A DNA stretch of 64,000 nucleotides from an uncultured Acidimicrobiia bacterium (GCA_963786955.1 CAWBAT010000009.1:224001-288000); one strand, 5' to 3'; positions 9,803-33,446 are shown, counted from the stretch's first letter. Notes: generated from the sequence alone by a model not told the origin. Program-made: numbers and translations.

Positions 9803-9825
9803 GTCTTTTTCGGGCTCACTATTGG

Positions 9826-14450: not shown

Positions 14451-15776
14451 TCAGGTGGCCTTCGGCCCGGCAATCGTGGACTTCAGATCGCTAGCCGAGG
14501 CCTTGCCCCCTAAATGTTTTCCACCCACACCCTGCAAATCACTGACGTCCGCCAGGGCCTGGTCTTCAGGCTCGGGAAAGGATCGTTCGACGGACCGGTT
14601 CAGCAGCGTCAGTTCACCGCGAAGGAGCGTCGTGCGCTCGGACGGCAAAGCCTCAATCAGGTTCTCCAGCATGGCGCGGAGGCGGCGGGCAACCTGGATG
14701 CTCATGCCGCCGAACTGACGGATTTCCGTAACCGCCAAGTAGACGAAGTCCTCCCAGTCGGGCGTCCGATAGACCAACCGCAGCGAACCTGACCGGTCGT
14801 AAGCCAGCCCTTCATCCAGATGCCGGCCGCCCACACTGCGCAAGAGGTGATGGATCTGGTCAATGGCCAGGACTGCGGTGGTCGGATCGTTAATTGCCGG
14901 GGAAAGCCCCTTGGAGGCGATATCCACGATGATCCGGAAGGCAAAAGCCGGATCCTGCTCCATGGTCCTTTCCTGGCCCAAAGCCAATGATTGACAGAGC
15001 GCACTGGCCGCTGGCCCGCCCTGGCCTCCAAAGATGCGGAACAGCGGGCTCCCGGCCGCCACAAAATCCCCTACCTGGGGCACCATCTCGACAACACACT
15101 CCGCCTCCCGGGCCAGGGCCACAAGCCCCTCGAGGTCGAAAGCCAAGACTACCCCGTACATCTGGCTCAAGACCGTACCGACAGGCTCTCCGGCGAGTGT
15201 GTTCACGGGACCCTGGGCGGTGGCCTGCGGCCCGGAGAGACGCCGGGGATAGACACTCCGGATCACCTCGTGCCCCACGCAGGCCACGGCCTGCAAGGCC
15301 CCGCTCGGACGCAGCGTCTTGCCCACATGATCGATGAGAAACAGGAAAACGCCTATGCTGAACAGGCAAAGGTAGGCGGCTACGTGTGCCGTTATCGCTG
15401 GCACAGTGGTGTGGATTCGCAAGAGGACGGCCAGCGTAAAGGTGAAGGTGAAAGTAAACAGGGTCAAGGTGAACCGGGTCACCGGATCCCGGAATACGAC
15501 CCCGATGATCCGCGGGCTGAGTTGAGCGCTGGCCAGTTGCATCACGAGCAGCAGTGAGGAAGAAAGGAATACGATGAAGGTCAACATGGACCCTGCCAAG
15601 GCGCCGAACACGGTTAGAGTAGCGGCTGGGTCTAATCCGACTTGCCAGCCGACGCGCAACTCGACCCAGTGAAGAAACCGGACCGACACCATCGCGACCA
15701 CCATCCCGAGCGCCGGAAAAATCCAGATCGAATTCCGGAGAAATTGCCGTAATTTGTAGCGCTGAATCCAGCTCAT
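14451..15776 (-). CDS. DUF2254 family membrane protein
   Basis: QLASAQLSPR, VPQVGDFV, QDPAFAFRIIVDIASKGLSPAINDPTTA. Confidence 0.85.
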   Translation of the reverse strand: MSWIQRYKLRQFLRNSIWIFPALGMVVAMVSVRFLHWVELRVGWQVGLDPAATLTVFGALAGSMLTFIVFLSSSLLLVMQLASAQLSPRIIGVVFRDPVTRFTLTLFTFTFTFTLAVLLRIHTTVPAITAHVAAYLCLFSIGVFLFLIDHVGKTLRPSGALQAVACVGHEVIRSVYPRRLSGPQATAQGPVNTLAGEPVGTVLSQMYGVVLAFDLEGLVALAREAECVVEMVPQVGDFVAAGSPLFRIFGGQGGPAASALCQSLALGQERTMEQDPAFAFRIIVDIASKGLSPAINDPTTAVLAIDQIHHLLRSVGGRHLDEGLAYDRSGSLRLVYRTPDWEDFVYLAVTEIRQFGGMSIQVARRLRAMLENLIEALPSERTTLLRGELTLLNRSVERSFPEPEDQALADVSDLQGVGGKHLGGKASASDLKSTIAGPKAT

Positions 15777-15817
15777 GGAATTAGTTTCCCGTGTTGGAAC
15801 TACATAGTCTTAAGACC

Positions 15818-16126
15818 TTACCCTTCAATGTGCATAGATTTCAGTGTTGGCCGCGCGGTCCCCCAGATGGCCACTGCCCCCACCACGAGCACCCAGAACG
15901 GGAAGACGGAGAGGCCGGGGATCGCCTCCATGACGAGGCCAGGTAACAAAATCCATTGCCAGCCAAGCACCACGAACAGCAAGATGGCTGTCGCCAGATC
16001 GGCCGCCCACTGCACCGGCGGCGTGAACGTCAAAAAGAGCGAAAGCCCATCCGCAAGCGCGGCCAGCGCGAAGGCCAGGGCCAGCGTTCTATTGGGGAAG
16101 CGGGGGTGGGGCTGAGGCTTGCTTAT
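15818..16126 (-). CDS. Small membrane hypothetical protein; start codon reads ATA
   Basis: The frame is open from ATA at 16126, 7 nt after AAGGAG, and is homologous to 7132-7419 upstream of the track start at 16033. Confidence 0.6.
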   Translation of the reverse strand: MSKPQPHPRFPNRTLALAFALAALADGLSLFLTFTPPVQWAADLATAILLFVVLGWQWILLPGLVMEAIPGLSVFPFWVLVVGAVAIWGTARPTLKSMHIEG

Positions 16127-16160
16127 GGAAAATCTCCTTCTTCAGGCTAGTAATCTCACG

Positions 16161-16197
16161 CATCACCGGACCGGCGGTGATGGCGGCTTCGTAAAAG
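16161..16197 (-). promoter_or_regulatory. Repeated leader hairpin motif, copy 1
   Basis: CATCACCG-CCGGTC-CGGTGATG hairpin 35 nt before a start codon; also at 18484 and 27040. Confidence 0.6.
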
Positions 16198-16207
16198 GCC
16201 AGGGCTC

Positions 16208-17044
16208 TCAGCTCCAGGTGACATCGAGTGGCTTCCTCGTGGGAATCCGGTGGTACTGCTCAGCCGGGTAACCGAGCAAGCAGGTGCCATGCGGTATGTA
16301 GCCTTCCGGGATCCCGAGCAGCTTGAGCAGGGGCGGGTAGCCCTGGCCGGCCGTGTTGATACTGCCGGTAAACGTGGTCCCCAGACCGAGTGCGGGTGCC
16401 GCAGTTTGAATCTGGGCTATGGCAATCATGGCCGCTGGCGGGGCCGTCCGCTCATCTTTCGGGGCGCAGGCCATGATGATGCACGGCGCTCCCCGGGCAA
16501 TGCGATCCTTGCCCCCGTCCCACGCGGCGACAAACGTCTCCAGGTTGGCCTCCTGGTAGAGCGCGGGATTCTTTTCCTTCACGATTTTCATCCAGTCGAT
16601 GGTCATCCCGGCGACCTGATGAACCTTCGCCAGATCGTTGACCACGATCCAGCGTATCACCTGGCGGTTCGCTCCGTTAGGCGCCCACCGCGCCACATCC
16701 AACAACTGCAGGACCTTTTCTTTTTCCACGGGTTTCTGGATGTAGCCACGGATGGAACGCCGCATCTTCAGGTACTGCTGCACCCGGTCCCATTTGGGGA
16801 TCAGGTGAATATCGATCGGCTCGCAATCCTCCGGGCCCATCGAGCGCTGGTGCATGGCCTCAGTAGGACAGATGGCCACGCAATGCCCGCAATCAATGCA
16901 GAGGTCCCACCCCTTTTCGATGTGAACGGGAAAATCCTTTTTGGTAATCAGACCACCCGGGCAGGCCCGGATGCAACTGCCGCAGTGGATGCACAGCATC
17001 TCATCCACCTTGATCATGATGTCCATTTTGTAGGTGCTACCCAT
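16208..17044 (-). CDS. Nitroreductase family protein with N-terminal 2x[4Fe-4S] ferredoxin domain
   Basis: CIHCGSCIRACP, CIDCGHCVAICP, RRSIRGY, APNGANRQ and LLGYP. Confidence 0.92.
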   Translation of the reverse strand: MGSTYKMDIMIKVDEMLCIHCGSCIRACPGGLITKKDFPVHIEKGWDLCIDCGHCVAICPTEAMHQRSMGPEDCEPIDIHLIPKWDRVQQYLKMRRSIRGYIQKPVEKEKVLQLLDVARWAPNGANRQVIRWIVVNDLAKVHQVAGMTIDWMKIVKEKNPALYQEANLETFVAAWDGGKDRIARGAPCIIMACAPKDERTAPPAAMIAIAQIQTAAPALGLGTTFTGSINTAGQGYPPLLKLLGIPEGYIPHGTCLLGYPAEQYHRIPTRKPLDVTWS

Positions 17045-17203
17045 ATTCTTTCCTCCTGTTGGTTTCGGAGGGGACTCTTTTTCGTTATCATGTTGCGCCT
17101 GCCACGCCGTCGGAATGGCCTATCGCTGACGCCCACGCATCATTTCTTCCCGGCGAGGTTCCCGCTAGCATAGCCGCAAGCTCTGCGCTGCGCTTCCTCC
17201 CGA

Positions 17204-18448
17204 CTACCCGAGCCTTTTCGTATTCGCCAGCGGCGCAGCTGTTTCAGGAAGCTTGGCAGTGGTTCTTTTCTTCCATTCTTCTTCCAGTAGTTCTCTGGCC
17301 GCCTTTTCAAGGAACTCCGGCGCAGCCCACTTATACACATCAAAATCGTTCTTTATGTAGCCGTGGCTCAGCATGAAGTTCTTCCCGATCTCCACGGAGG
17401 CCAGATTCAGGGGAGACAGGTTGGGCACCATGTCAACATCCTTGATGCCCCGGTACGTATCCTCGACGTCAAGATAGTAGGTCTGCTTGTCGAGGATTGC
17501 GGCCGCGGCGTGCTTGTGTTCGTTGGCCCAGCGCCCGACCTTGATCATGCCCTTCATGAACGTGACGGCGAGCTCGGGGTGCTTCTCGGCCATCGCGTCG
17601 GTACAGGTGATGGCAGCCGGGATGTTGGCCACTTGGAGGCGCCAATCCGGACGCTTGGATAAATCCTCGATTATGGCGAACTTGCCTGTTGCCTCTGAGA
17701 GCACACTTAAGACTTTGCTTTGGCTGTACATCGCGTCGATGACGCCCTTTTCCAGTGCGGTCTCCAGCGGACGGAAGGCCAGGTCGTGCTTGTGGTCACG
17801 CTTGAGCTGCCATTCCGATGGGTTCTCAATGGGCGTCAGCATCTTCGGATCGTTGTACCAGTCATCCGCGTAGGGGAACTCCACGATCTGGACGTCGTCC
17901 ATGGTCATGCCGTTCATCCGGAGCATCAGTTCGATACCTTGGTGCTCCTGGATGCGCCACCAGTCGTTCTTGATCTTGTTCAGGCTCTTGGAAAGGCCGA
18001 TCTTCTTGCCTTTCAGATCCTGCATCCGATAGATGTTGTCCTTGGCGCGCACCAGCAGGACACCGCCTTCGTGCGGCACGTGCGTCACGCCCAGAAGCCT
18101 AGTCCTGCGGATGTCGGCATGAACCTGTATCGGGGGGAAAAGGCCTCCGAAGCGAATGAGGTTGTCTAGGTTGTGGATGTAGTGCGGGTACCAGTCGTTG
18201 TCAGGGGAGGAGCGGAAATAAGCGTACTTGACGCCGATCTTCTTGTATTCCTCATTGGTCCAGCCGAGTTCCTGGTCGACATTGCTGGCGGACACGAGAG
18301 GGCAATTGGTGTAGTACACCTCTTTCCAATTCAACTTTACCGTGTTCAATTTTGTATTTGCGAACGTTGTCTCTTTGACTTTCGTCTTTGAGAGTTCCCC
18401 CGGAGAACACGCCGTCGGATCTCCGCTCTTTCTTGTTTTGTCAGCCAT
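17204..18448 (-). CDS. DszB-like protein (periplasmic-binding-protein fold; possible desulfinase)
   Basis: YYTNCP, PHYIHNLDNLIRFGGLFPP, RTRLLGVT and DLKGKKIG. No signal peptide and no adjacent permease or ATPase. Confidence 0.7.
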   Translation of the reverse strand: MADKTRKSGDPTACSPGELSKTKVKETTFANTKLNTVKLNWKEVYYTNCPLVSASNVDQELGWTNEEYKKIGVKYAYFRSSPDNDWYPHYIHNLDNLIRFGGLFPPIQVHADIRRTRLLGVTHVPHEGGVLLVRAKDNIYRMQDLKGKKIGLSKSLNKIKNDWWRIQEHQGIELMLRMNGMTMDDVQIVEFPYADDWYNDPKMLTPIENPSEWQLKRDHKHDLAFRPLETALEKGVIDAMYSQSKVLSVLSEATGKFAIIEDLSKRPDWRLQVANIPAAITCTDAMAEKHPELAVTFMKGMIKVGRWANEHKHAAAAILDKQTYYLDVEDTYRGIKDVDMVPNLSPLNLASVEIGKNFMLSHGYIKNDFDVYKWAAPEFLEKAARELLEEEWKKRTTAKLPETAAPLANTKRLG

Positions 18449-18483
18449 GATTGCATCTCTCCTTTAATTTTAATGTGATTTCT

Positions 18484-18520
18484 CATCACCGGACCGGCGG
18501 TGATGGCGATTTGTTAAAAG
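18484..18520 (-). promoter_or_regulatory. Repeated leader hairpin motif, copy 2
   Basis: CTTTTAACAAATCGC-CATCACCG-CCGGTC-CGGTGATG, 36 nt before the ATG at 18448. Confidence 0.6.
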
Positions 18521-18704
18521 TCTGCACCATTCTGCTGAATGGACTTCAGATTCCTGTTTTGGCCTCCTTCTCTGCTTCACCCTGCGGATTTCTCCTATCT
18601 TTGGGCTTCGAGCGTGCGCCGTGCCAGATCGGGATTGATGCTGGACACGGCATCGTATTGGGTCAGGTGGACCTGGCCGGTGAGTCAGGTTCCGCAGTCG
18701 CGCT

Positions 18705-20474
18705 TTAAGGAGACTGTCGAAACGCCTGAGCGGCGTGCCGGTTGGTCGGGTAGAATCGGTCCGGGTCAATCAGTTCAATCAAATCGTATCGCTCGAGCCA
18801 CGAGCGGAAAGACCGGTCGGCGCGGCTGACGGCGAAGGTGATATTCTGTTTCTTCAACAGGGTGATCGCCTGACGAAGAACCCCCGCACCGGTCGTGTCG
18901 ACGTCAACCATCGCCTGTGCATCCAGCACGAACCAGCGGACAGGGGTGGGCGCCTGCGTGACCAACCGCTCGACGTCGTCAAGGAACAGGGTCGCATTGG
19001 CGAAATAAAGCGGAGCGCCAAAGCGGTATACCATCAGGCCGGAGGAGCCGGAGGCGTTCCCGCCGTCCACGGGGAGGAAGTGACTGCCGTCGGGCGCTTC
19101 CACGAGCGCCGAGGTTTCCGGACGGGACGCCCGCCGGATCACATCAATCGTCGACATGAGAAAGGCGATGACGACGGCGCGCAGCGGGCCAAGGGCCAGC
19201 ACGCTCAGCAGGCAGACCGCGGCGATCCAGAACTCCGAACGGCGCATCCGCCACAACTCGCGGAACTCGTGGACCTCGATCAGCGACAGCACCGCGTTGG
19301 CGACGATCCCGGCCAGGGCCGCATTTGGCAGGTAGGCCAAGAGGTTGGTGAAGAAGAGCATCACCAGTGTGATTGTCCCGGCAGCCACCAGGCTGGGCAA
19401 CTGGCTGCGCGCGCCCGCGGCATCCATCGCCGCCGAGCGGGACGGGCTGTTGCCCGTGACGATGGACCCGGTGAAGCCGGCTGCCAGGTTGGCCACACCG
19501 TAAGCGAACAACATCTGGTCGCCGTCGGCCTTATAGCCATACTTGTTGCTGTAGCTGCGGACCACCAGCAGACCTTCGCACAGGAGAATGGCCACGATGG
19601 CCAGGGCGCCCGGCAGCAGCCGCAGGTAGTCGGCCAGAGGGATCGTGGGCAGGGTCAGCGTCGGGAGCCCCGAGGGAATCGTGTTGCCGAGCACGGCGAC
19701 GCCTTTCGCCGGGAGGTCGAGGATCGCGACAAGAGCCGTCAGCAGCACTAGGGCCACCAACGCGCCGGGGATTTTTGGCGCGTACCGTTTCATCAGCCGA
19801 ACGATCAGGAAGGCGCTCACCCCGATCGCCACCGAGTAGAGGTTGGCGCGCGGAACGGAGTGGATCAGGGCCAGGACCTCCACGAAGTAACCCTCGGTGT
19901 TCGTCACCGAGGTCGCCAGGGTCTCCTTGAGGCGCTCCGCCGCCGCCAGCAAGCCCGACGTGGCGTTGCCCACATGGGGAGCAGCGAGGACCTTCCGGAC
20001 CTGGTTGGTGAACACCTCGACGCCGAGCCCGGTGATGAAGCCTGCCATCACGGCGCGCGAGAGGAAGTTGGCGAGGAATGCCAGCCGGAAGATCCAGAAG
20101 ATGAAGAACAGCAACGCGCAGACCACGGCCAGTGCCAGGGCGTACTGCATGCGAAGCGGATCCCCGGGCGCGGCGAAGGCGACGAGGGCGGCCCCGACCA
20201 GGGTGGCCATGGAAGCGTCGGGGCTCGTCACCAAGTGGCGCGAGCTGGCCAGCAGGGCAAAGACCGCCAGCGGGATGATGGCCGCGTAGAGACCAGCCAC
20301 GGGGGGCAGGCCGGCCACCTGCGCGTAACCGATGTTCAGCGGGATCATCAGAGCGGCCAGCGTGACGCCCGCCGAGACCTCCCGCGGGACGTCGGCCAGC
20401 GTGATCCCTCGCAAGCCCGCGAACGGGCGTGGCCAGCGGATCCTGGCGAAAATGGTGCGGGCTTCTTTGCTCAT
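18705..20474 (-). CDS. SulP family anion transporter with STAS domain
   Basis: AGVTLAALMIPLNIGYAQVAGLPP..GLYA, YRFGAPLYFANA and DVDTTG. Confidence 0.92.
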   Translation of the reverse strand: MSKEARTIFARIRWPRPFAGLRGITLADVPREVSAGVTLAALMIPLNIGYAQVAGLPPVAGLYAAIIPLAVFALLASSRHLVTSPDASMATLVGAALVAFAAPGDPLRMQYALALAVVCALLFFIFWIFRLAFLANFLSRAVMAGFITGLGVEVFTNQVRKVLAAPHVGNATSGLLAAAERLKETLATSVTNTEGYFVEVLALIHSVPRANLYSVAIGVSAFLIVRLMKRYAPKIPGALVALVLLTALVAILDLPAKGVAVLGNTIPSGLPTLTLPTIPLADYLRLLPGALAIVAILLCEGLLVVRSYSNKYGYKADGDQMLFAYGVANLAAGFTGSIVTGNSPSRSAAMDAAGARSQLPSLVAAGTITLVMLFFTNLLAYLPNAALAGIVANAVLSLIEVHEFRELWRMRRSEFWIAAVCLLSVLALGPLRAVVIAFLMSTIDVIRRASRPETSALVEAPDGSHFLPVDGGNASGSSGLMVYRFGAPLYFANATLFLDDVERLVTQAPTPVRWFVLDAQAMVDVDTTGAGVLRQAITLLKKQNITFAVSRADRSFRSWLERYDLIELIDPDRFYPTNRHAAQAFRQSP

Positions 20475-20567
20475 GATGTGATCCCTCCATCCACACGGAA
20501 CCGGCAGTCCGACCCTCGGACCGGTTCTTTAATGTTCATTCTGACCTTCATAGAAATCCGACGTTGG

Positions 20568-20687
20568 CGACTGCGGGATGCGCATGACCGTGTCGATTGC
20601 CGCCGCAATCTGGTCATTCATAAGAGTCTGGCGGGAGTATTCGGCCCCCCGGGCCAGGATCGGGAGATAGCGGCGAAGCGTGGACAT
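20568..20687 (-). pseudogene. N-terminal remnant of a second, different SulP gene
   Basis: MSTLRRYLPILARGAEYSRQTLMNDQIAAAIDTVMRIPQS resembles the SulP N-terminus (LP...W...Y.....D..A..........IPQ). Confidence 0.55.
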
Positions 20688-20691
20688 GGTT

Positions 20692-21153
20692 TCAACCCCT
20701 TTCGCGGTTTTCGGTATCTGAATTGGTCTTTGCATCCGGCTTGATGGCCGACCCCTTCCATTTGCGGTATAGCATGTGCGCGATACGCATGACCGGGCCT
20801 CGAACCAGAAAATACGGCACGATGGCGCAAGCCACAGCCACGACCAGCAACTCCCCGAAGTAGAACGACCGCAGGACCCAGATCTGGTAGATGGTGTCGA
20901 GCACACAAGCGATGATGAAGATTCTGCCAAAATCCTTGAGCCCGGAGCGGAGAAGCCGTCGCCGCTCGGTTGGGTTCTTGAAGAAAGCCCCCAGGAAGGT
21001 TGGCTTCCCTTCCCGGACATCCCTCAGGTACGCTCGGATCGCAAGGATAGTGACCACCGTGGGCATGACCACTAGCCGGAAGTTCAACGGCCCGCTAAAC
21101 CGGCCGAGCAGATGTTCACCTCGACTAGCCAACATTTCAAAGATCGTATCCAT
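20692..21153 (-). CDS. Hypothetical membrane protein
   Basis: GRFSGPLNFRLVVMP, KDFGRIFIIACVLDTIYQ and PYFLVRGP; AAGGA RBS. Confidence 0.7.
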   Translation of the reverse strand: MDTIFEMLASRGEHLLGRFSGPLNFRLVVMPTVVTILAIRAYLRDVREGKPTFLGAFFKNPTERRRLLRSGLKDFGRIFIIACVLDTIYQIWVLRSFYFGELLVVAVACAIVPYFLVRGPVMRIAHMLYRKWKGSAIKPDAKTNSDTENRERG

Positions 21154-21350
21154 GGTTCATTCCTTTCGAGGACTGACTTGGTACGGCCCCTTGGGCATTC
21201 TTTGTTTTCCACGATTTCAAGCAATGGTGCAATACGAATAGGACAGCATGCCTCAGAAAATCCCCTCCGCCGGAGGGGATTGTTGAAAAAATCGGGCCAT
21301 TTTCGATTTTCCATGTTCTTCACCATCGTTCGTCCCTCCTACAAGCCCAT

Positions 21351-21869
21351 CTACTGGACTTTAGAGAGCAGCATCCGGTCGGGAGTGAGCTTTTTCGTCC
21401 ACGGACAACCGGAGTTTTTCCAGCCGTCCTTCGGTTGCTTGCCCTGAGCCACGCTTGCAGAGTCCCCATTCGCATCCCCCTCCATGCCGTCAATGATGTT
21501 GTAAACGTGCTTGAACCCGGCCTTGGCAAGCAGGTTGGCGGCGATGGCGCTGCGGCCACCCGACCGGCACATGACGCAGATCGTGTCATCAGGTTTGGCC
21601 ACCTCGCTTACCCGGGAGACGAAATCGGGGAGGAGTTTCATGGGAAACTGCCCCTTGCTGGCGTCCCACTCATACACCTGAGCGGCGACCGGGATTTTCC
21701 AGGCCATGGTCGGATGGCCGACAAAAAGAAACTCCTCGGGAGTGCGGACATCGAATATCATCACCTTCTCCGGCTCGGCCTGCCACTTCTCATAGGCCTC
21801 CTTCGCGGTCACATAGAGCCCAAGCACCGTCTGCTTTTCTTTGGGAAGAGCTACATTAGGTTCAGTCAT
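21351..21869 (-). CDS. Rhodanese-like sulfurtransferase
   Basis: DVRTPEEF, active-site CRSGGRS, YNIIDGMEG and GWKNSGCPW. Confidence 0.9.
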   Translation of the reverse strand: MTEPNVALPKEKQTVLGLYVTAKEAYEKWQAEPEKVMIFDVRTPEEFLFVGHPTMAWKIPVAAQVYEWDASKGQFPMKLLPDFVSRVSEVAKPDDTICVMCRSGGRSAIAANLLAKAGFKHVYNIIDGMEGDANGDSASVAQGKQPKDGWKNSGCPWTKKLTPDRMLLSKVQ

Positions 21870-21875
21870 ATTTAC

Positions 21876-22087
21876 CTCCTTAGAAAATCCCCTCCACTGA
21901 GGGGAATCACTTTTATTTTCTTATTGTGCCTGCCTCACCTTAATGACTGGCTCCTCTGAAAACCCCTCCGTCGGAGGGGTGGCTGCCGCAGGCAGACGGG
22001 GTGGGTCTTCTCTAAGAAAAGTTTTCCCTTCTCCAAACCCACCCCTGGCCTTCGGCCATCCCTCCGACGGAGGGGAATCGTTTTCAT
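21876..22087. repeat. Two tandem shell elements with CCCCTCC..GGAGGGG palindromes
   Basis: On the minus strand, ATGAAAA...TTTTCAGAGGAG (22087-21951) then AAGAAAA...TTTTCTAAGGAG (21922-21876); strong similarity to 24383-24523. Confidence 0.75.
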
Positions 22088-22170
22088 TAACATGTCGTGC
22101 GTCCACCTTCTCGTGGCTAATGGGCCTAAGTGACGCTGCAATGACAACGTGGTAATCGTAATGGTTCCGG

Positions 22171-23097
22171 TCACTGAGCTTCCGCTTCATCCCAGGAGTC
22201 GTCAGGATCGTACTCCGTCATGCGGAGGGCCTGCGAGTCAGTGTCCTTCCCGAGATCCTTCTGGTACACGACGCCATCCGGGCCGACCACGAAGGTCATG
22301 ACGCCGCTGAATGCGTATTTGGCTGGATAGGCGAGGAGAGCGAAGCCTCCTGTCATATTGCCGTTCACCACGTAGCTCTTTTTGCCGCCGGGCGCAGCCG
22401 GTCCCTGGGCCGCGAGTATTCGGTAGCGGTAGCCCCGGAACGGCGAGGACTCCGGCTTGTTCTGGTCATAGCCTTCGGCTGCAGCCTCGGCGACGAGGTC
22501 ACCCATCGGACTGCGCCTTTCCCCGGGTTTCCTCTGCCAGTAGAGACCATCATGGAGGCCGAGAGAGCTGCGAAGGTGTTGAGCAAAGAGGCCTGCTGGT
22601 TTGCCGTCGTGCGGCTGACTGGCATATTCCTTTTGCATGCCGACATAGGTGTGACATAGGTCGATAACGTCGAGCTCGTTGCCTCCGATTCGCCGTGCCA
22701 ACACCTCATGCTTACCGGCTTCGGAGTCGAACTGCCACTCATTGCCGGTTTTGACCAGGGGGACCGGGAAGGGCCACTGTTCGTCGCCGATGATCAGCTC
22801 CTTGCCGTTTTCACCGTGCGGCCCCCAATGCCAGGATTGCTCCATCGCGAGCGCAAGCACCTCACGATCATGACGGTCGGCAACCGGATCGCCGGAGGCG
22901 GCAGCTTCTATCCCTTCGCGGCCGAAGATCGCCTGTATCTTTCCCATGTCTTCCGTTTTGAATGCCTGGAGCACCGCTGCCGCTGCCTCATCCGGTGTGG
23001 CGAATTTCGTTTGCTCCGGGGCTTTGTTACAAGCCGGTGCAAACAGGATGACCAGCCCAAGCACTGCCAGTAAAACAAACAGTTTCAGAAATCGCAT
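22171..23097 (-). CDS. DUF2950 family protein (probable lipoprotein)
   Basis: WPFPVPLVK, RRIGGNEL, DGLYW, PFRGYRYRIL and GVMTFVV..DGVVYQKDLG. Start MRFLK follows GAGGAGG. Confidence 0.88.
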   Translation of the reverse strand: MRFLKLFVLLAVLGLVILFAPACNKAPEQTKFATPDEAAAAVLQAFKTEDMGKIQAIFGREGIEAAASGDPVADRHDREVLALAMEQSWHWGPHGENGKELIIGDEQWPFPVPLVKTGNEWQFDSEAGKHEVLARRIGGNELDVIDLCHTYVGMQKEYASQPHDGKPAGLFAQHLRSSLGLHDGLYWQRKPGERRSPMGDLVAEAAAEGYDQNKPESSPFRGYRYRILAAQGPAAPGGKKSYVVNGNMTGGFALLAYPAKYAFSGVMTFVVGPDGVVYQKDLGKDTDSQALRMTEYDPDDSWDEAEAQ

Positions 23098-23128
23098 ATC
23101 CATCCTCCTCTTCCTCTCTGGTTTATCA

Positions 23129-24310
23129 TCATCGTCCGCCACCACGTCGGCCCCCTCCCCCTCCACCACGTCGGCCCCCTCCACCGCTCTTGCCTCCGCT
23201 CCTGCCTCCGCCACCGCCGCTAGAAGAGAGGCTGCTGCTGCCCCGCGAGCTCTGGGCGCGAGTGGCTGAGCCACTCTGATAGCCCGACATGCCCCCGGAA
23301 CTCATTCCGCTGCGCTGCGAGGCGGTCTGCCCGCTTCCGCGGCTGGAAGTGGTCGCCGCAGTTTGACGCTGCTGTTGACCCGCTCCCTGAGACTGCGCGG
23401 ATGGCGCGCCGGACTGGCGCTGGCCCTGGTTCGCCTGTGCGGTGGATTGGCGCTGCGACTGGCCCGACTGCGCCGTGGATTGACGCTGCGACTGGTTCGA
23501 CTCCTTGCTAGACTGGCGCTGGTCCTGATTCTGCTGCGCGTTAGACTGGCGCTGATCCTGATTCTGGCGAGCTTGGTCCTGGCGATCCTCGTAGTAATCT
23601 TGGCGATCATCCCAGTAATTGTCGTAGCGATGATAGTAACTATTGTGGTGGGCGCCGATGAGTATCCCCGCAGTGAAGCCAATGGCGGCCGCTCCGGCAA
23701 CTGACGCGCCACTGGGGGGTGGAGGAGCCGCGACGTAAACTGTCTGCGGATTGTAAGTCGGGACGTAAATGACCTGGGGATTGGCCGGTTGAATGACGAT
23801 CACCTGTTGGCCGCTGGAGGTGGTCTGCGTTTCGACCGTCTGCTGAGAGGTTGTCTTCAGATTGCCGGCTGCCTGCGCCTGCGCGCGCATGCGCTGGATC
23901 GAATCGAAGATACCGTCTTTGTCGGCATTGAACGCCTGGCCAAGTGCCTTGGTCCAGTCCGGTTTCTGGACCATCATCTGGATGACCTGGGGAAACGGCG
24001 CCAGCGCAACCAAAGCGGGATCGAAGCCGGCCTTCTGTGCGGCGTCCTGGAGTTCGCTGCCCTTCAGTTTGGAGTTTTTCCCCATCCAGTCGGCAAACGA
24101 CTTGAGATTGTCAAAATTCGTGGAAGCCGCCACAATCTGAAAGATCAGGGCATCCGGGTAAAGGGCGATCGGAGCCGTCAATTGGTCGATCGCATTTGTC
24201 GATGCCGGCGCGCCCTTCGACTGTTGCGCAAATAGTTTTCCCGAGGGGATGAGCCCACAGAAAAGGGTGAACAGAAGCAGTAATAGCCAAACTCGTGACA
24301 TGGATCTCAT
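23129..24310 (-). CDS. DUF3300 domain protein with Gln/Ser repeat and Gly/Arg-rich tail
   Basis: DQLTAPIALYPDAL, VIQPANPQVIYVPTYNP and 11-aa QRQS repeats; the usual partner of DUF2950. Confidence 0.88.
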   Translation of the reverse strand: MRSMSRVWLLLLLFTLFCGLIPSGKLFAQQSKGAPASTNAIDQLTAPIALYPDALIFQIVAASTNFDNLKSFADWMGKNSKLKGSELQDAAQKAGFDPALVALAPFPQVIQMMVQKPDWTKALGQAFNADKDGIFDSIQRMRAQAQAAGNLKTTSQQTVETQTTSSGQQVIVIQPANPQVIYVPTYNPQTVYVAAPPPPSGASVAGAAAIGFTAGILIGAHHNSYYHRYDNYWDDRQDYYEDRQDQARQNQDQRQSNAQQNQDQRQSSKESNQSQRQSTAQSGQSQRQSTAQANQGQRQSGAPSAQSQGAGQQQRQTAATTSSRGSGQTASQRSGMSSGGMSGYQSGSATRAQSSRGSSSLSSSGGGGGRSGGKSGGGGRRGGGGGGRRGGGR

Positions 24311-24382
24311 TCGTATACTCCTTTCAGGCTCGTTTAAGCTGGCGTGCTGTTGTACCGTTAATTCATCCTATTTAGGCTTTTT

Positions 24383-24523
24383 CTAGAAGTCCCCTCCACC
24401 GGAGGGGTGGACGTCCGCCGCGGCGGACGGACGGGGTGGGTCCCATCGACCGAAAGCTTTCCCTACTCCAAACCCACCCCTGGCCTCCGGCCATCCCCTC
24501 CAAAGGAGGGGAATCATTTTCAT
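24383..24523. repeat. Shell element with CCCCTCC..GGAGGGG palindromes
   Basis: About 140-bp paralog of 21951-22087; begins at the stop codon of the upstream minus-strand gene. Confidence 0.75.
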
Positions 24524-25263
24524 CATGAGTCTCCTTTGGAGCCCGGGTTCGCCGAAGTATCCCGGCGAGCCCGCTGCCGGCGCGACCGCATCTCGGCTAG
24601 GCTTAACTTCCGCTCGATTTTTGCAAACAGGATCACCGCCCATAACACCGGAGCAAGGGCCGCACCCACCGCGCCCTGGAAAAAGGTGATGGCCTTGCAA
24701 TCCCCACTGAAGCGGCCGAGTAAGGCATCCACGGTGTTGCCGCTCAGGTTGGTGAAAGTGATGAAGCGCACGTAGGCGAGGATCTCCTTCACCTGCGCAT
24801 CGCTGTAGTACTTGCGCAGGTTCTCAATCGATTCCGGGGCGAACTGGTCGAGTTGCTCCGCGTAGTGCTGAGCAAACAGGATCGCCGCGGCCTCGGCCGG
24901 ATTAATTGCCTCCAGCGACTCGGTCTGATGGCGGAGGATCTGGTTGACTTCCTCAAGCGGTACCCCGTGGGCCATTGCCCAGTGCATATGACCCCACTCG
25001 CAGAAGCGGCAGTCGTTGATCGAAGTGACGCCGAGAAAGATCTTCTCGCGCAGCGCAAAAGAGAGTTTCGGCCTGACCAGCGCCCGGGCAAGAACGGGGG
25101 ACGAGGCCACGAAGTTGGCGACCGTCTTGAAAAAGTTGTCAGGAGTCAGCGTACGCTTTGGCTGGCTGTGCTGCTTCGGTGGCGCGCTTGTGCCATTCTT
25201 CGAGTGCGGATCATCGGCAGGCTCGGCGCGCCCGCCGCCGGTCACGTGCTTAGACTCTGTCAT
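24523..25263 (-). CDS. Carboxymuconolactone decarboxylase/AhpD-like protein
   Basis: LREKIFLGVTSINDCRFCEWGH (CxxC-xxx-H). Start MTESK follows GGAGG. Confidence 0.8.
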   Translation of the reverse strand: MTESKHVTGGGRAEPADDPHSKNGTSAPPKQHSQPKRTLTPDNFFKTVANFVASSPVLARALVRPKLSFALREKIFLGVTSINDCRFCEWGHMHWAMAHGVPLEEVNQILRHQTESLEAINPAEAAAILFAQHYAEQLDQFAPESIENLRKYYSDAQVKEILAYVRFITFTNLSGNTVDALLGRFSGDCKAITFFQGAVGAALAPVLWAVILFAKIERKLSLAEMRSRRQRARRDTSANPGSKGDS

Positions 25264-25348
25264 CTCTATACCTCCTTGCTTGTCGTTCGCGACCTGGTTC
25301 ACCTCCACGCACATCGGCCGCGTGGTCGGCTTCACCTATCGGTTCCGA

Positions 25349-25684
25349 CTATTTGCTTTCGAGGATCTTTAATATCGTTTGGTAGCCGCCGCCGTTGAAG
25401 GCTTTGAAACCCGCGGCTTCCAGTACTTGTTTTGCCATTCCGGCCCTGCCGCCCGTGCCGCAATAAAGTACGATGTTTCGGTCACGAGGCAGTTCGTCCA
25501 TATGACGCTTTAACGTAAAGAGCGAAATATTCGTCGCGCCCGGAGCAATGCCTCTTCTCGCTTCGAGCTTTGTTCGGACATCAACCAAAAATGCTCCTTT
25601 TTTGAGCAGTTTCGCTACTTCTTCCGGCGGCAGCTTTGTGTCCGCTAAAGCGTCATGTTTTTCTTTTAATTTTCCTAACAACAT
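25349..25684 (-). CDS. Single-domain rhodanese (PspE-like)
   Basis: LVDVRT, YCGTGGRA and NGGGY. Confidence 0.88.
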   Translation of the reverse strand: MLLGKLKEKHDALADTKLPPEEVAKLLKKGAFLVDVRTKLEARRGIAPGATNISLFTLKRHMDELPRDRNIVLYCGTGGRAGMAKQVLEAAGFKAFNGGGYQTILKILESK

Positions 25685-25809
25685 TTAACTCCTTATTTTA
25701 GTATGCGTGCGCTTTCACTGCCAGCAGTGTTGTCAACGGGGCCGTTGCCTTCGACCCCGTATCCGTCCTTGCTGGTCGTGCAGATGTGCTCGCCATAAGA
25801 GGCGACCTT

Positions 25810-26493
25810 CTAAGGAATGTAGTTCGCACTTGTATCCGAACCATAACCGCAGCCCTGGTAGGTGCAGTGCAGGTCGTCGCGGATGATGGCCGCCCATCCG
25901 CCCGCTTTGCTGGTGTCGAGCACGAGATCCTTTTCGAGGACCTTGGTCTCGAACTTCCAGCCTTGCGGCAGGGTCTTCAGCTTGCCGCCTACCGTGTTCA
26001 CATTGTCGGGCGTCAGGCTCGGATCGACCGCCTTGGTGTATTCCTGCATAACCCAAACTGCGCCGTCCGGCGCGCGCAGCAGGCACACGGATTTACCCGC
26101 CTTGAAGGTCCAGACCGAGCTGCGCCGGATCAGCGAGGGCACGTAGGCGTTCTGCATCTGCGAGATCATCTCCGCCCCGGTCATATCCCCGCCCCAGCGC
26201 AACTCGACGCCGTGAAAGTTCTGCGTTTCGCCGACGAGGAACTTGATTTCGTCCATCAGCCAGAAGCGTCCGCTGTTGACCGCGCACATATCCACTTCGA
26301 GTTCGCCCGCCAGTTTCTTGGCATCGATCTTTTTGTAGGCTTCGGGGTCGACGGGAATCGATGCCGCCGTATAGACGTGGGCTCTCTGTGATTTCCCGGT
26401 GCCGATAAAGGCCCCCATCCCATGGAAGGGGAGGCCGCGGGTGTTGTTGAAGCTCATCCAGCTTAGGGATTCCATACCTGTTTTAAGTTTCAT
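25810..26493 (-). CDS. Conserved hypothetical protein
   Basis: 227 aa with RBS and coherent GC3-rich codon use; RFWLMD, DGAVWVMQ and LPQGWKF. Confidence 0.7.
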   Translation of the reverse strand: MKLKTGMESLSWMSFNNTRGLPFHGMGAFIGTGKSQRAHVYTAASIPVDPEAYKKIDAKKLAGELEVDMCAVNSGRFWLMDEIKFLVGETQNFHGVELRWGGDMTGAEMISQMQNAYVPSLIRRSSVWTFKAGKSVCLLRAPDGAVWVMQEYTKAVDPSLTPDNVNTVGGKLKTLPQGWKFETKVLEKDLVLDTSKAGGWAAIIRDDLHCTYQGCGYGSDTSANYIP

Positions 26494-26609
26494 TGGTTTT
26501 TTCCTTTCGTTTTATAGTTGGCTTCTTGCTTCTATGAGAGTCGTGACGTTGGGGCGCGGGAGCACCGCGCCCCGATGTTTGATTTACGGAATGTAAGGCG
26601 CGTCACCAC

Positions 26610-27008
26610 TTACTTCTTCATCATCTTCGCGAGATGCTCCTGGATTATCTTGGCTTGCGCAGCCAACCCTCCACCGGGGCTGAACTGGATGATCTCGGCC
26701 CCTTCCTTCGACTTGAAGTTGTGCGGAGCTGGCCAGAAGCACGCTTCCCCAGCGCGGCAAACCTCAATGGTCCCGTCAAGGTAGATGACCTCCACCGTGC
26801 CCTTCAAAACGTAAGCCCAGTGTTCAACCCCGCACAGATCATGCGCTAGTCCCTTCCCAGCCAGAATTTGTGTGAAATCAGTACCCGGGGCAAAGACGTG
26901 GTAGGCGCACTGCATGCCGCCCCAGTTCTCCTCCCAAATTTTGAGGCCTGGGGTGTTCTGGGTGACGATGTCGTCTACTGGGTGCATATCCGTCAATTTC
27001 TTCCTCAT
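26610..27008 (-). CDS. Cupin-like hypothetical protein
   Basis: LCGVEHWAYVLKG...AGEACFWPAPHN cupin-like motifs; GGAG RBS. Confidence 0.7.
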   Translation of the reverse strand: MRKKLTDMHPVDDIVTQNTPGLKIWEENWGGMQCAYHVFAPGTDFTQILAGKGLAHDLCGVEHWAYVLKGTVEVIYLDGTIEVCRAGEACFWPAPHNFKSKEGAEIIQFSPGGGLAAQAKIIQEHLAKMMKK

Positions 27009-27039
27009 ATGTTTTCTCCGTTTTGTTTTTGTTTTCGTG

Positions 27040-27076
27040 CCTCACCGGACCGGCGGTGATGGCGATTTGTTCAAAG
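27040..27076 (-). promoter_or_regulatory. Repeated leader hairpin motif, copy 3
   Basis: CTTTGAACAAATCGC-CATCACCG-CCGGTC-CGGTGAGG, 32 nt before the ATG at 27008. Confidence 0.6.
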
Positions 27077-27306
27077 CCAGACCCGGTCGCCTGGACAAAC
27101 CTAGTTGTGCACTGACGGCCATCGGTTACGGAAAGTAGTTGGCGCTCGTGTAAGTCATTCTTGAAAATACCCTCCTTTCTCCTGAGCTTTCGCCCGGCCG
27201 AGGAGTTGCTCAACACCACGAGTTAGCATCTCCAGAATTGCATCCATGGTTCACTCCTTCCGATGATTGAGATGTCAGAGTTTGGCTGTGCGTTCTTCTC
27301 TTTCCG

Positions 27307-28728
27307 TCATTGAACCTCTTCGAAGACCGCCGGCACTTTGCCCTGCCGGACCGCGCGTTCGAGGGCTGCATGGTCGCTCTCGTTCTGATCGGCGTAGGCC
27401 AGCGAAAAAGACGCGATGGCCCGGTCGAAGGCGTTGCTTTTACCCATGTACCCGCTGAGCAGAGCGGAACTCCCGGACCGGGCGTGGGAAATGGCGAGGG
27501 CCCTTCCGCACCAGGTGGCATAGAGATCCATCTCGGAGAGACCAAACGTCTCCACGCGGATACTGATCTTGATGTCCCTCAACTGGCGGATGAAGAGATG
27601 GTGATTGACGAGCTGGCCCACGCTCCACCCGAGGAACATGTCGCTGGCGGGTTGCATGAGCCGGTAACCGTTCACAACTCGCTCGCCATGGTTCGAAAAG
27701 ACACTCGCACCGGCATAGGGCTCGAGCACCGAGGCACGCGCCTCCTTCACCTGGAGGAAGAGCGGGTCGTCCTGGCCGGCCATGAAGAGCATGACCCAGC
27801 AGTAGGTCCCGACGCTGCCGATCCCCACCACCTTGATGGCGGCGTCTCGCAGCTCGTAGCGGTCCAGCACAGATTGATAGGCTGGGAGGAGATTGGCACG
27901 GTACGCGGCGAGCATATCGAACAATGCCTGCTGAATCTGACCCGGAGGATAGGCCTCATGGTGGAAGATGGTGGGGAGCTGATCCTTGATGACGGGCATT
28001 TCTCCCTTGTGCTCCGCCAGCTTCGGGAAGATATCCTCGGCAATGCTCTTCGCCCGTTCCTTCTGCAGGCGCTTAATGCCCCGCTTGCGAAGCTCGGGGT
28101 CCTTGATGCCCGCCACCAACTCGTCTACCCCCATCGATTGGTACCACAGTTCGAGGGTCTTCATCTGGCTGAACTCGGCCATGGCTTCGCGGTAGGTGCG
28201 GACGCAGGTCATGACCACGTCCTTGGCCTGGCCATCCTTCAGGCCGTTGTCCCGGCAGGCCACGACGAAGCTAGCGGCGAGACGCTTGACGTCCCACTCC
28301 CAGGGAGCCGGCAAGGTCTCGTCAAGGTCGTTGATGGAGAAAATGACTCTCCGCTCCGGAGTGGCAAATCCGCCGAAATTACACAGGTGTGCATCTCCGC
28401 AGCACTGGACGCGAACACCCGAGGCCGGGGTGGACGCGAGGTCCGAGGCCATGGTGAGGGCCGCCCCGCGGTAAAACGTGAACGCAGAGCGGACCATGCG
28501 CCCGTGGCGGAGGGGGAGAAGGTCAGGTAGACGTCCCTTCTCCGACTCCAGAACCAGCTCGACCGGGTCCCGCCGGTCAGATGGAGCCTTCCAAACGGCG
28601 TGGGCACTGCGGGGGCAGGTCGCCCGTAAGGCCTTGCCCGCGGCATATTGCTCCGCCCGCAGCCCAGACTGGACAGGAATCTGGGCTCGCTTATCACCTG
28701 GTCGGACTGGCTTTTTCGAAGATGCCAT
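27307..28728 (-). CDS. DUF2252 family protein
   Basis: RHGRM..SAFTFYRG, CGDAHLCNFG, NDLDET.PAPWEWDVKRL and KVVGIGSVGT. Confidence 0.9.
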   Translation of the reverse strand: MASSKKPVRPGDKRAQIPVQSGLRAEQYAAGKALRATCPRSAHAVWKAPSDRRDPVELVLESEKGRLPDLLPLRHGRMVRSAFTFYRGAALTMASDLASTPASGVRVQCCGDAHLCNFGGFATPERRVIFSINDLDETLPAPWEWDVKRLAASFVVACRDNGLKDGQAKDVVMTCVRTYREAMAEFSQMKTLELWYQSMGVDELVAGIKDPELRKRGIKRLQKERAKSIAEDIFPKLAEHKGEMPVIKDQLPTIFHHEAYPPGQIQQALFDMLAAYRANLLPAYQSVLDRYELRDAAIKVVGIGSVGTYCWVMLFMAGQDDPLFLQVKEARASVLEPYAGASVFSNHGERVVNGYRLMQPASDMFLGWSVGQLVNHHLFIRQLRDIKISIRVETFGLSEMDLYATWCGRALAISHARSGSSALLSGYMGKSNAFDRAIASFSLAYADQNESDHAALERAVRQGKVPAVFEEVQ

Positions 28729-28734
28729 TGTATT

Positions 28735-28871
28735 CTCCTCTGAAAATCCCCCCTTGAGGGGGGCAGCAGGCGTAGTAAGCCTGCGGGGGGTGCCGCTTTC
28801 GGTGGGTGCTGTCTTGTCGACAATGTGGACATCCCCCTGCCCCCTTCAAAGGGGGAATCGGTTATTTTCAT
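28735..28871. repeat. Shell element (CCCCC..GGGGG palindromes) whose end forms the DUF2252 RBS
   Basis: Minus strand ATGAAAATAACCGATTCCCCC...GGGGGGATTTTCAGAGGAGAATACA-ATG. Confidence 0.7.
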
Positions 28872-28988
28872 CCAATGTGGCGCCGCAACGCGGCATGAAA
28901 AACTCCTTGGTCGATTCTCCATCGGACCTGCGTGATGGTGGCTTCTTGCACATCAGGCCCTGCTGCGAGCTGTTGGTTGCGTCACCAT

Positions 28989-31117: not shown

Positions 31118-31325
31118 GTCCGTCTCTAGTGCATTATCCATGCCACCTTGTGAAGACAATGCGGAATGAGCCGTAAACGTTTCTTTGTGAACAGTTTGCA
31201 ATGACGCCCTACAAATGAACAACAGACGTGGCCACAGCTGAAACGGCGATATGCCGTTAATATGACGAAATATCGTCGCTCGGATTGAGTTGAAGGAGAC
31301 TTGGAAAAGTAGAAGGGATTCCCCT

Positions 31326-33197: not shown

Positions 33198-33446
33198 GGA
33201 CAAGACGTGTTCCTTTGGGGTGATGAGCCTTTGAAGCTCAGTTTTCGATACCCGACATTTCCGGTCCGTTCCGGGCTCTGTGTTCAAGCCCTAAAGGACT
33301 TTAGACACACCGCCATTCGTTTAGCTTATACCAACTGAGCCAGTTGACCCAAGAAAATGGCCTCCGCTTGATGAAAGCAATCCCAAGGGCGCGATCGTTC
33401 CAACGAGCGCCTTTCAATGGGGCACCGAATTCAGTACAATCAGTCC

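Follow-up and report, generated by a model that had tools for sequence, protein, structure and literature searches.

A candidate cis-regulatory RNA with two complementary hairpin loops, found ahead of sulfur-metabolism genes in an uncultured Acidimicrobiia bacterium and in other bacteria

The RNA targets of ANTAR proteins share a signature in which an A occupies position 1 and a G position 4 of both loops, and their second hairpin competes with a terminator. In Escherichia coli, a hairpin resembling the selenocysteine insertion sequence (SECIS) represses selAB; the rrn boxA signal of antitermination has the consensus GCUCUUUAACAA, and the attC recombination sites of integrons share the core motif RYYYAAC. 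No sulfur-compound-sensing RNA has, to our knowledge, been established. The mini-ykkC RNA, or guanidine-II riboswitch, consists of two small hairpins with ACGR tetraloops, carries a ribosome-binding site within or next to its second hairpin, and is associated with guanidine exporters and carboxylases (see also the abstract of PMC7544219). We describe here an element, also built of two small hairpins, in a 64,000-nucleotide stretch of DNA from an uncultured Acidimicrobiia bacterium (GCA_963786955.1 CAWBAT010000009.1:224001-288000), the whole of which is called 'the window' below. It is apparently an undescribed cis-regulatory RNA motif; in the way it would work it comes closest to the guanidine-II riboswitch, without belonging to that family. 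We regard it, with moderate confidence, as a gene-specific element of the mRNA that would act in cis and post-transcriptionally on the next gene.

In its complete form, represented in the window by copy 3 (Table 1), the element is about 76 nucleotides long and comprises a first hairpin (P1) with the loop G(A/G)CCGG, a linker of 17 nucleotides, and a second hairpin (P2) with the loop CCGGUC. Since the two hexaloops are exact complements, P1 and P2 are able to form a kissing pair. The consensus of the sense strand reads ..CCAGGC-G(A/G)CCGG-GYCUGG, followed by 16-18 nucleotides (..GAAC.AAUCGCCA) and then UCACCG-CCGGUC-CGGUGA... Behind P2 comes a spacer that is rich in A and has no structure; the distance from the end of P2 is 8-20 nucleotides to the Shine-Dalgarno sequence and, in most loci, 21-34 nucleotides to the start codon. 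A preliminary description of this DNA, made from the sequence alone, had reported a hairpin before three genes. That hairpin is real, but it is only the 3' half of the element: P1, at 27077-27094, was missed, and the '5' box' then described corresponds to the linker together with the lower stem of P2.

Two samples of homologues were assembled, one through the hairpin and the other through a gene behind it. A scan of a species-representative genome collection with the 18-mer TCACCGCCGGTCCGGTGA gave at least 117 loci, and lining up their flanks revealed, among the matches listed, about 30 with a second hairpin upstream. A covariance model was built from 28 of these 18-mer loci, chosen by flank similarity and including the window copy; L122 (lacking P1), L124 (nearly identical to L108) and L032 (with a deviant loop 1) were left out. 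Among the 117 matches listed, 30 score 50-87.5 bits against this model and the other 87 score 36 bits or less, although 27 of the 30 high scorers are themselves model-building sequences that match by construction (the exceptions being L032, L111 and L124), and P2 and loop 2 are fixed throughout this set by the search itself. The second sample was not selected through the RNA: metagenome contigs were scanned with an alignment of six cupin proteins, yielding 35 loci, one of which (L207) has no upstream DNA. The element is present at 24 of the remaining 34, with the model match ending about 14 nucleotides before the ATG. An alignment made with MAFFT from 22 of these metagenome elements and the window copy (23 in all, with the exact duplicates L175, L189 and L190 dropped, and with two copies supplied by contig L203) is referred to below as the cupin-anchored set. 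The two elements of L203, at 1768-1843 and 2329-2404 of that contig, are canonical (87.4 and 87.5 bits), and between them lies a cupin gene that shares just 54% identity with that of the window.

The alignments support a folded RNA. RNAalifold, run unguided, recovered both P1 and P2 but gave no helix between the 5' and 3' flanks (a closing helix not being counted directly). In the cupin-anchored set 90.6% of 436 cells are paired, and compensatory changes affecting both sides occur in 9 of 19 pairs, of which three belong to P1, three to the loop-loop helix and three to P2. None of 500 shuffles reached the observed value on any of five measures, and sliding the partner columns by 1-3 positions, as a control, left 21-48% paired; because the sequences are related, such shuffle counts overstate their independence, a caveat that applies to all of the covariation reported here. 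Examples in the loop-loop helix are the replacement of G-C by A-U (L200) and of C-G by G·U (L174), and in P2 the replacement of A-U by G-C (L205) and of C-G by A-U (L183). Loop 1 of the 18-mer set does vary, but its changes preserve pairing: A or G stands opposite U in 10 of 29 sequences, U replaces C opposite G in a further pattern seen in 2 of 29, and a single cell is unpaired. A three-pair lower extension of P2 (GCC with GGC, and a bulged A) is 83-87% paired. A further helix between the 5' flank and the linker, suggested by the fold of copy 3, was rejected at 50% paired, below the shuffles, and this unsupported score indicates that the pair count is capable of a negative answer.

The same substitutions identify the molecule that folds. 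At one position of P1 a G·U pair is the commonest (12 of 23 sequences), and such pairs remain paired only in the RNA of this strand (they would be A·C on the other), which points to sense RNA, rather than duplex DNA or antisense RNA, as the folded molecule; together with the covariation in the stems and the loop-loop helix, and with the fixed orientation and distance to start codons in many genomes, this supports the earlier proposal of a cis-acting element on the sense RNA. We consider it improbable that the element is instead a site in the DNA, with two inverted repeats bound by the neighbouring sigma-54 activator or by a repressor. Both parts of the element are indeed inverted repeats, and a sigma-54 activator of the HTH_8 type stands at the cluster head here and in genomes G041 and G045. 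The repeat arms, however, are unrelated (CCAGGC versus UCACCG). The match between the repeats is confined to their central hexamers, whose opposite orientations suit pairing within an RNA and not a common protein half-site. The substitutions preserve pairing over sequence and include many G·U pairs, meaningless in duplex DNA; the orientation is always sense; and the element, 25-35 nucleotides before the start codon, is a long way downstream from the single promoter-like site, with no room for a -24/-12 promoter. That the conserved feature is a small peptide encoded across the element (in the frame ..QIAITAGPV..) appears extremely unlikely: of the 50 aligned elements 41 keep the frame open, but it contains a stop in the other 9 and a TAA in copy 2 of the window, it runs into the window's cupin gene out of frame, no conserved start codon was seen by eye, and the changes fall in pairing partners and are not concentrated at third positions.

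Segment by segment, identity is in keeping with selection on the element. Identity to the window within the cupin-anchored set is 95% for the P2 stem, 93% for loop 1, 90% for loop 2, 85% for the P1 stem and 80% for the linker, as compared with 72% for the 3' flank, 46% for the 5' flank, and 75% (range 52-89%) for the third codon positions of the adjacent cupin genes; in L203 the core is identical to that of the window despite the divergence of its cupin. Both loops have six letters in nearly all aligned sequences. Across the 28 and 23 aligned homologues of the two sets the letters of the linker vary widely, the recurring part being only ..AAC.A..CGCC.

These figures bear on the principal rival to gene-specific control, namely a passive intercistronic processing or stability element that would give each cistron its own half-life without any ligand. 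Two variants of it may be envisaged: a stack of P1, the loop-loop helix and P2, some 18-20 base pairs in length, that is cut by RNase III, or an RNase E site in the A/U-rich linker, with P2 capping the 5' end of the downstream product. The element always lies between co-directional genes in long operons, several may occur in one cluster, no expression platform is visible, and copies reduced to P2 persist in the window, all of which would suit such a role. Stabilisers, however, need shape and not sequence, whereas this element holds its loops, its stems and a large part of its linker at 80-95%, against 46% in the 5' flank, and compensatory change has kept the two loops exactly complementary; on balance we think passive processing unlikely, albeit the strongest of the alternatives.

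The element occurs in several copies in the window. The 22-nucleotide hairpin CATCACCGCCGGTCCGGTGATG (that is, CATCACCG-CCGGTC-CGGTGATG) occurs on the minus strand, as the preliminary description had stated, and is exact at 16161-16182 and 18484-18505 and carries one mismatch (..GAGG) at 27040-27061. With up to three mismatches allowed, these three sites are the only ones in the whole 5,653,179-base genome, on one contig and one strand, and a control pattern gave no match; 100 shuffles gave no matches of any kind. Three copies on one strand of one 11-kb stretch do not correspond to the scatter of a repetitive extragenic palindrome (REP), and that reading fails; such scatter was the outcome that the preliminary description had named as speaking against itself. 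Several other early claims hold as well: the box CTTT(T/G)AACAAATCGC is common to the copies at 18484 and 27040, with the variant CCTTTTACGAAGCCGC at 16161; loop 2 (CCGGUC) is identical in all three strong copies; the downstream genes are not homologous (an open reading frame (ORF) of no family, an NMT1/SsuA-like gene closest to DszB, and a Cupin_2 gene); and the distance to the start codon, always on the sense strand, is nearly constant at 31-35 nucleotides. The start codon is ATG at 18448 and at 27008; behind the 16161 copy, the expected start position, 7 nucleotides past a GAAGGAG box, is occupied by ATA (at 16126), in frame with the small membrane-like ORF.

A canonical P1 with its loop is present in copy 3 alone, and in the window the full fold is possible only in that copy; its minimum-energy fold contains both hairpins. 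In copy 2 the model aligns UCAGCA / GAAUGG / UGCAGA with P1, which would allow at most five of the six loop-loop pairs, and the thermodynamic fold favours CCAUUC-AGCA-GAAUGG, burying those same letters. Copy 1 has a linker of a different subtype (CCUUUUACGAAGCCGCCA), and in the position of P1 it has a weak stem with a 10-nucleotide loop; within this loop the nitroreductase/ferredoxin gene has its stop codon, and the loop contains no complement to loop 2. Small differences in these weak copies may in part be assembly errors, which we suspect because the window assembly contains several frame breaks. The covariance model, when applied to the organism's own genome, adds only a relic at 28911-28978 and two matches with E >0.3. 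The 'decayed fourth copy' proposed at about 28918-28945 is thus present, as a weak relic only (15.3 bits, E = 3); intact elements occupy the equivalent place in other genomes (by comparison with L093/L173 and L089/L170). A half-element of the opposite kind was observed elsewhere: L152 (G043:C15:74860-74928), 4.4 kb downstream of a complete element, is an orphan P1 with the loop GGCCGG and a matching linker, and without P2, so that half-elements exist in other genomes too.

The linker of copy 2 is of the cupin type, whereas DszB-like genes elsewhere carry other linkers, which hints, from the sequences compared, at an exchange between copies inside this genome. Such an exchange is one sign that would suit a recombination site or scar marking where shuffled gene modules meet (resembling attC, or a miniature mobile element), as had been suggested at the outset. 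Further signs are that the element stands at the borders of differing gene modules in different genomes, that the cluster is an island not found in relatives, and that contigs of relatives from RNA libraries join across copy positions (16185 to 29012, 26494 to 27126, and 16197 to 18546), from which it follows that relatives have other gene orders at the element. As a function, recombination is nevertheless unsupported, and we give it little credence: the genome has just three or four copies; no integrase, transposase or recombinase family was found among the 55 (21 + 34) window ORFs scanned; no target duplications were noticed, no dedicated search having been made; CTTTTAAC / CTTTGAAC do not, by eye, fit the RYYYAAC core of attC; the distance to the start codon is fixed; and the compensatory changes indicate a folded RNA.

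All 21 of the high-scoring hosts with titles shown (from the 30 loci among the matches listed) are metagenome-assembled genomes (MAGs), labelled Chloroflexia/Anaerolineae, NC10, Acidobacteriota/Holophagae/Thermoanaerobaculia, Planctomycetes, Actinomycetota, beta- and 'delta'-proteobacteria, and Nitrospirota, and the element-bearing MAGs carry at least eight phylum-level labels. Closer to the window it was not found: a search of 40 relatives with the 22-nucleotide pattern returned only three-mismatch matches resembling chance or coding sequence, and 150 further genomes sampled from the window's phylum yielded no element when searched with the covariance model. Nor were the DszB-like and cupin genes found in genomes of the same genus or family, and a search of plasmids found no similar DNA. 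In the phylum of another host genome (G044), the DszB-like gene occurs in 2 of 401 genomes, G044 included. From this the cluster would seem to be an island passed on horizontally, so that the number of phyla carries less weight as an argument.

Comparison with described RNAs sets the element apart from each of them. Rfam 15 gave no match for the window at gathering score, nothing at the element in 13 loci at E <=1, and, in a 161-nucleotide region at E <=10, only chance-level matches (tp2 at 15.8 bits, freshwater-2 at 13.1 bits); this comparison and the test for covariation had both been proposed as checks beforehand. A literature search with the element sequence returned one unrelated primer match, and a search of the open literature by gene and keyword returned nothing relevant. 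Term searches in the main texts of four motif catalogues, supplements apart (PMC5737381, PMC11109978, PMC8632094, PMC6429828), turned up no motif linked to rhodanese, cupin, kissing loops or CoA-disulfide reductase. In the main text of the first of these, the sul1 motif is still without a ligand (PMC5737381). Because all titled hosts are MAGs, catalogues made from isolate genomes may have missed the element.

Like the guanidine-II riboswitch, the element places two linked small hairpins with a presumed loop-loop contact before a start codon and has no large aptamer or terminator. It differs in its loops (complementary hexaloops, GRCCGG and CCGGUC, making six pairs, rather than ACGR tetraloops), in a Shine-Dalgarno sequence 8-20 nucleotides beyond P2, in the sulfur genes behind it, and in its failure to match Rfam. 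Riboswitches of the purine type likewise hold two hairpins side by side through loop-loop pairs, with conserved joining strands and a possible pocket between them; the loops of the element, in contrast, make a plain six-base-pair helix, and the flank-linker helix that was tested is unsupported. The targets of ANTAR proteins also have two tandem short hairpins with hexaloops in a leader, but loop 1 of the element has G at position 1 and C at position 4, loop 2 has C and G at those positions, the two loops are each other's pairing partners, and P2 is not followed by a terminator. No ANTAR domain was found among the Pfam matches of the scanned neighbours.

A likeness to bacterial SECIS hairpins raises the question of whether P2 binds SelB in the untranslated region and so links these genes to selenium status, for which we see only a slim chance. 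The P2 stem has 6-8 base pairs and a G or GU in its small apical loop, and a UGA lies about 20 nucleotides upstream in the cupin subtype, in agreement with the part of the description in PMC4605307 that concerns these features. This spacing (UUUGAAC, with the GG of the loop 23-24 nucleotides after the U of the UGA) is found only in the cupin subtype; other subtypes have no UGA at that place. A selB gene was seen in 8 of 10 element-bearing genomes (seven above the family cut-off, and G041 as fragments below it), as against 2 of 14 controls above the cut-off, and the genome of the window has its own, at C4:253599-255485. This enrichment, however, may reflect anaerobic sediment taxa, and no selB was seen in 2 of the 10 hosts. 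Unlike a SECIS, moreover, the element has no conserved in-frame UGA (homologues read TAA, CGA, TGG or TTA there) and no ORF running through the hairpin: a TAG closes the frame three codons before P1 in the window, and 30 of 50 elements contain a stop. Loop 2, finally, is engaged by its partner loop and is held by that pairing, not by its own letters only.

The preliminary description had compared the hairpin and its 5' box with nut sites and boxA, that is, with a signal of processive antitermination (of the nut/put or rrn-boxA type) acting through the 18-kb operon. The comparison has visible grounds, since the genes form a long cluster in one direction, the box of copies 2 and 3 is CUUU(U/G)AACAA, near rrn boxA, with a hairpin next, and lambda nut, HK022 put and rrn boxA likewise combine, in the RNA of a long operon, a short A/U-rich box with a hairpin behind it, put having two such hairpins. 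It does not survive the alignment, and we judge this role very unlikely. The 'boxA-like' letters belong to the linker and the lower P2 stem, and they are not conserved (GGUCAAAACAACCCGCC and AAAUCAGAACCAAGCGCC, for instance, occur in homologues); the loop, a base-paired hexaloop, is not of the boxB type; and the element is not found once after a promoter but is repeated before particular genes, with three or four sites over 13 kb in the window. It occurs, besides, in chromosomal sulfur clusters of many phyla without an N-like or Q-like gene.

We return to the element as a control device for the gene directly behind it. Its position at the edge of the ribosome-binding region, its repetition before selected cistrons and its conserved unpaired linker form the pattern expected of gene-specific control. 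What the analysis establishes is the structure with its conservation, strand, position and associated genes; regulation itself, the step it would affect and the signal it would answer to are inferred. P1 and P2, joined by the conserved single strand of 17 nucleotides, would kiss through their hexaloops in the mRNA; the complex, at the 5' edge of the ribosome-binding region, would set either ribosome access or mRNA decay; the linker, thereby closed off, would be the likely recognition pocket; and the response, to a small molecule or a protein of the regulon, would concern the cistron directly behind. The setting would be that of long, sigma-54-driven operons for sulfur metabolism of the sulfinate/persulfide type, with genes for a cupin, a DszB-like desulfinase, rhodaneses, a CoA-disulfide reductase-rhodanese, ABM and SulP. 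A narrower proposal, which we put forward tentatively and with clearly more doubt, is a riboswitch class that senses a sulfur compound of the pathway (sulfite, sulfinate, or CoA persulfide/disulfide) and switches translation of the cupin, desulfinase-like and rhodanese genes cistron by cistron in uncultured sediment bacteria; in keeping with what is generally asked of a riboswitch, the element is a conserved structured RNA ahead of functionally linked genes in distant taxa.

Several observations weigh against this interpretation: (i) no expression platform was found, the Shine-Dalgarno sequence being unpaired with the element and no terminator following it, so that ribosome loading, decay and processing are all possible steps of control; (ii) single-sequence folds are no stabler than shuffles (z from -0.95 to +0.43); (iii) two of the three strong copies in the window (1 and 2) are unable to form the kissing pair, which means either that P2 and the linker work alone or that these copies are decaying; (iv) the element is dispensable, being absent at 10 of the 34 cupin loci (L176-L179, L182, L192, L195-L197 and L202) and also at the DszB-like locus L209, the second of the two in the phylum of G044; (v) the loci are related and were probably spread by horizontal transfer, the high identity at third codon positions marking them as fairly close relatives despite their different phyla, and part of the 'conservation across phyla' is therefore shared recent ancestry among sequences that are not independent; and (vi) although sediment metatranscriptomes (four runs from two studies) contain contigs on relatives of the cluster, at 90-99% likeness to window positions 15500-29500, such contigs cannot show RNA ends, strand or levels, and DNA carry-over is possible.

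The genes around the element recur with it. Read along the minus strand, the cluster opens with the sigma-54 activator, the promoter-like site, ABM, the broken CoA-disulfide reductase-rhodanese gene, the relic and DUF2252; it continues with copy 3, the cupin gene, a 227-residue ORF, rhodanese, CMD, DUF3300, DUF2950, a second rhodanese and SulP; and it closes with copy 2, the DszB-like gene, the nitroreductase/ferredoxin gene, copy 1, the small membrane-like ORF and DUF2254. The same gene families flank the element in five other genomes. A Nitrospirota MAG has the order activator, ABM, CoA-disulfide reductase-rhodanese, element, DszB-like gene. An Acidobacteriota MAG (G041) has three strong copies in 35 kb, each between genes, with SulP, enoyl-CoA hydratase, DszB-like, DUF2252, rhodanese, CMD, ABM, CoA-disulfide reductase-rhodanese and sigma-54 activators as neighbours; one of its copies stands between an ABM-like ORF (assigned by eye) and the cupin gene, downstream of a promoter-like GGGCAC..GTGCT. 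The genes immediately downstream of the element elsewhere encode cupins, DszB-like proteins, rhodaneses, and in one case each a PFL-like and a DUF2092 protein.

As judged by its sequence and place, the site at 31130-31145 is the likely start of a long minus-strand transcript carrying the elements; matches to the sigma-54 consensus are not enriched in the window (14 versus 10.6 expected). A sigma-54 promoter inside the element was considered and rejected, its GG and GC lying, by eye, 11-13 nucleotides apart and not 10. No sigma-70 promoter-like site was found at the element, and no sense-strand terminator was found after P2, which is terminator-like solely on the antisense strand. The ATA at 16124-16126, where the small membrane-like ORF has no ATG, GTG or TTG, may represent initiation at a rare AUA codon, a mutation or a miscalled base, and the breaks in the CoA-disulfide reductase-rhodanese and sigma-54 activator genes may be real decay or assembly indel errors. 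The former of these two genes adjoins the decayed fourth copy.

Table 1. Positions of the element copies and of neighbouring features, counted from the first letter of the window.
Feature	Position	Strand	Remarks
Copy 3, complete element	27034-27109	minus	directly upstream of cupin gene; 86.8 bits, E 4.7e-18 (covariance model)
Copy 3, P1	5' arm CCAGGC 27089-27094; loop 1 GACCGG 27083-27088; 3' arm GUCUGG 27077-27082	minus	
Copy 3, linker CUUUGAACAAAUCGCCA	27060-27076	minus	
Copy 3, P2	5' arm UCACCG 27054-27059; loop 2 CCGGUC 27048-27053; 3' arm CGGUGA 27042-27047	minus	
Copy 3, P2 extension	GCC 27061-27063 with GGC 27039-27041, bulged A	minus	
Copy 2	18478-18553	minus	upstream of DszB-like gene; 63 bits; linker and 8-bp P2 (18484-18505) intact, P1 diverged
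Copy 1	16155-16233	minus	upstream of small membrane-like ORF; 43.6 bits; 8-bp P2 (16161-16182) intact
Decayed relic	28911-28978	minus	behind broken CoA-disulfide reductase-rhodanese gene; 15.3 bits, E = 3; keeps GGGCCUGAU..GAAGCCACCAUCA-CGCAGGUCCGAUGG
Cupin gene, 132 aa, Cupin_2	26610-27008	minus	68-87% identity to five homologues; gene most often behind the element elsewhere
DszB-like gene, NMT1/SsuA-like fold, 414 aa	17204-18448	minus	closest solved structure DszB 2de2_A, E 1.1e-10, residues 45-383
Small membrane-like ORF, 102 residues	15818-16126	minus	behind copy 1; no Pfam family
CoA-disulfide reductase with C-terminal rhodanese	28989-30675	minus	broken by frame changes and an in-frame stop in the assembly
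Sigma-54 activator, cluster head	31594-33287	minus	two overlapping ORFs: GAF 32751-33287; AAA+/HTH_8 31594-32766
Sigma-54 promoter-like site TGGCATGGATAATGCA (GG-N10-GC)	31130-31145	minus	ahead of ABM gene; consensus match only

Other repeats were observed in and near the cluster. Two paralogous gene starts, at 27155-27270 (MDAILEMLTRGVEQLLGR) and 21100-21176 (MDTIFEMLASRGEHLLGR), are 74% identical over 77 nucleotides; the one beginning at 27247 meets a stop after 30 codons, with the end ..NYFP* at 27126, and the stretch 27155-27270 looks like the remnant of a 231-residue gene of no family that precedes the element and the cupin gene in L081 and L069. Intergenic hairpins of another family, (T)CCCCTCC-N3-4-GGAGGGG(A), in some cases with a T-run after them, occur at 21249-24523 and 28735-28768 of the window; in the strict form CCCTCC-N2-5-GGAGGG there are 36 in the genome, five of them within 3.3 kb of the cluster. 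Two such hairpins flank an element of about 113 nucleotides whose arms (21963-21983 and 22055-22075) are 95% complementary. An intergenic direct repeat of 81 nucleotides, 81% identical between 21982-22062 and 24417-24497, overlaps short ORFs starting MK(T/M)IPL. Four tandem 33-nucleotide units (seen as overlapping 69-nucleotide copies, 67-71% alike) lie within the DUF3300 gene at 23387-23554 and, as translated, would give a repetitive segment of the protein. A PD-(D/E)XK nuclease-family ORF is present at 9391-9819.

If real, the element would be an undescribed and widespread cis-regulatory RNA with an unusually simple loop-loop design, in which the contact is fully base-paired. It is tied to poorly understood sulfur genes (those for the DszB-like desulfinase, the cupin, the CoA-disulfide reductase-rhodanese, ABM, DUF2252 and further proteins without known function), and it would offer a handle for defining the sulfur regulon in uncultured bacteria, a concrete candidate for a sulfur-compound-sensing RNA, and a compact model for how kissing hairpins beside a ribosome-binding site may control expression.

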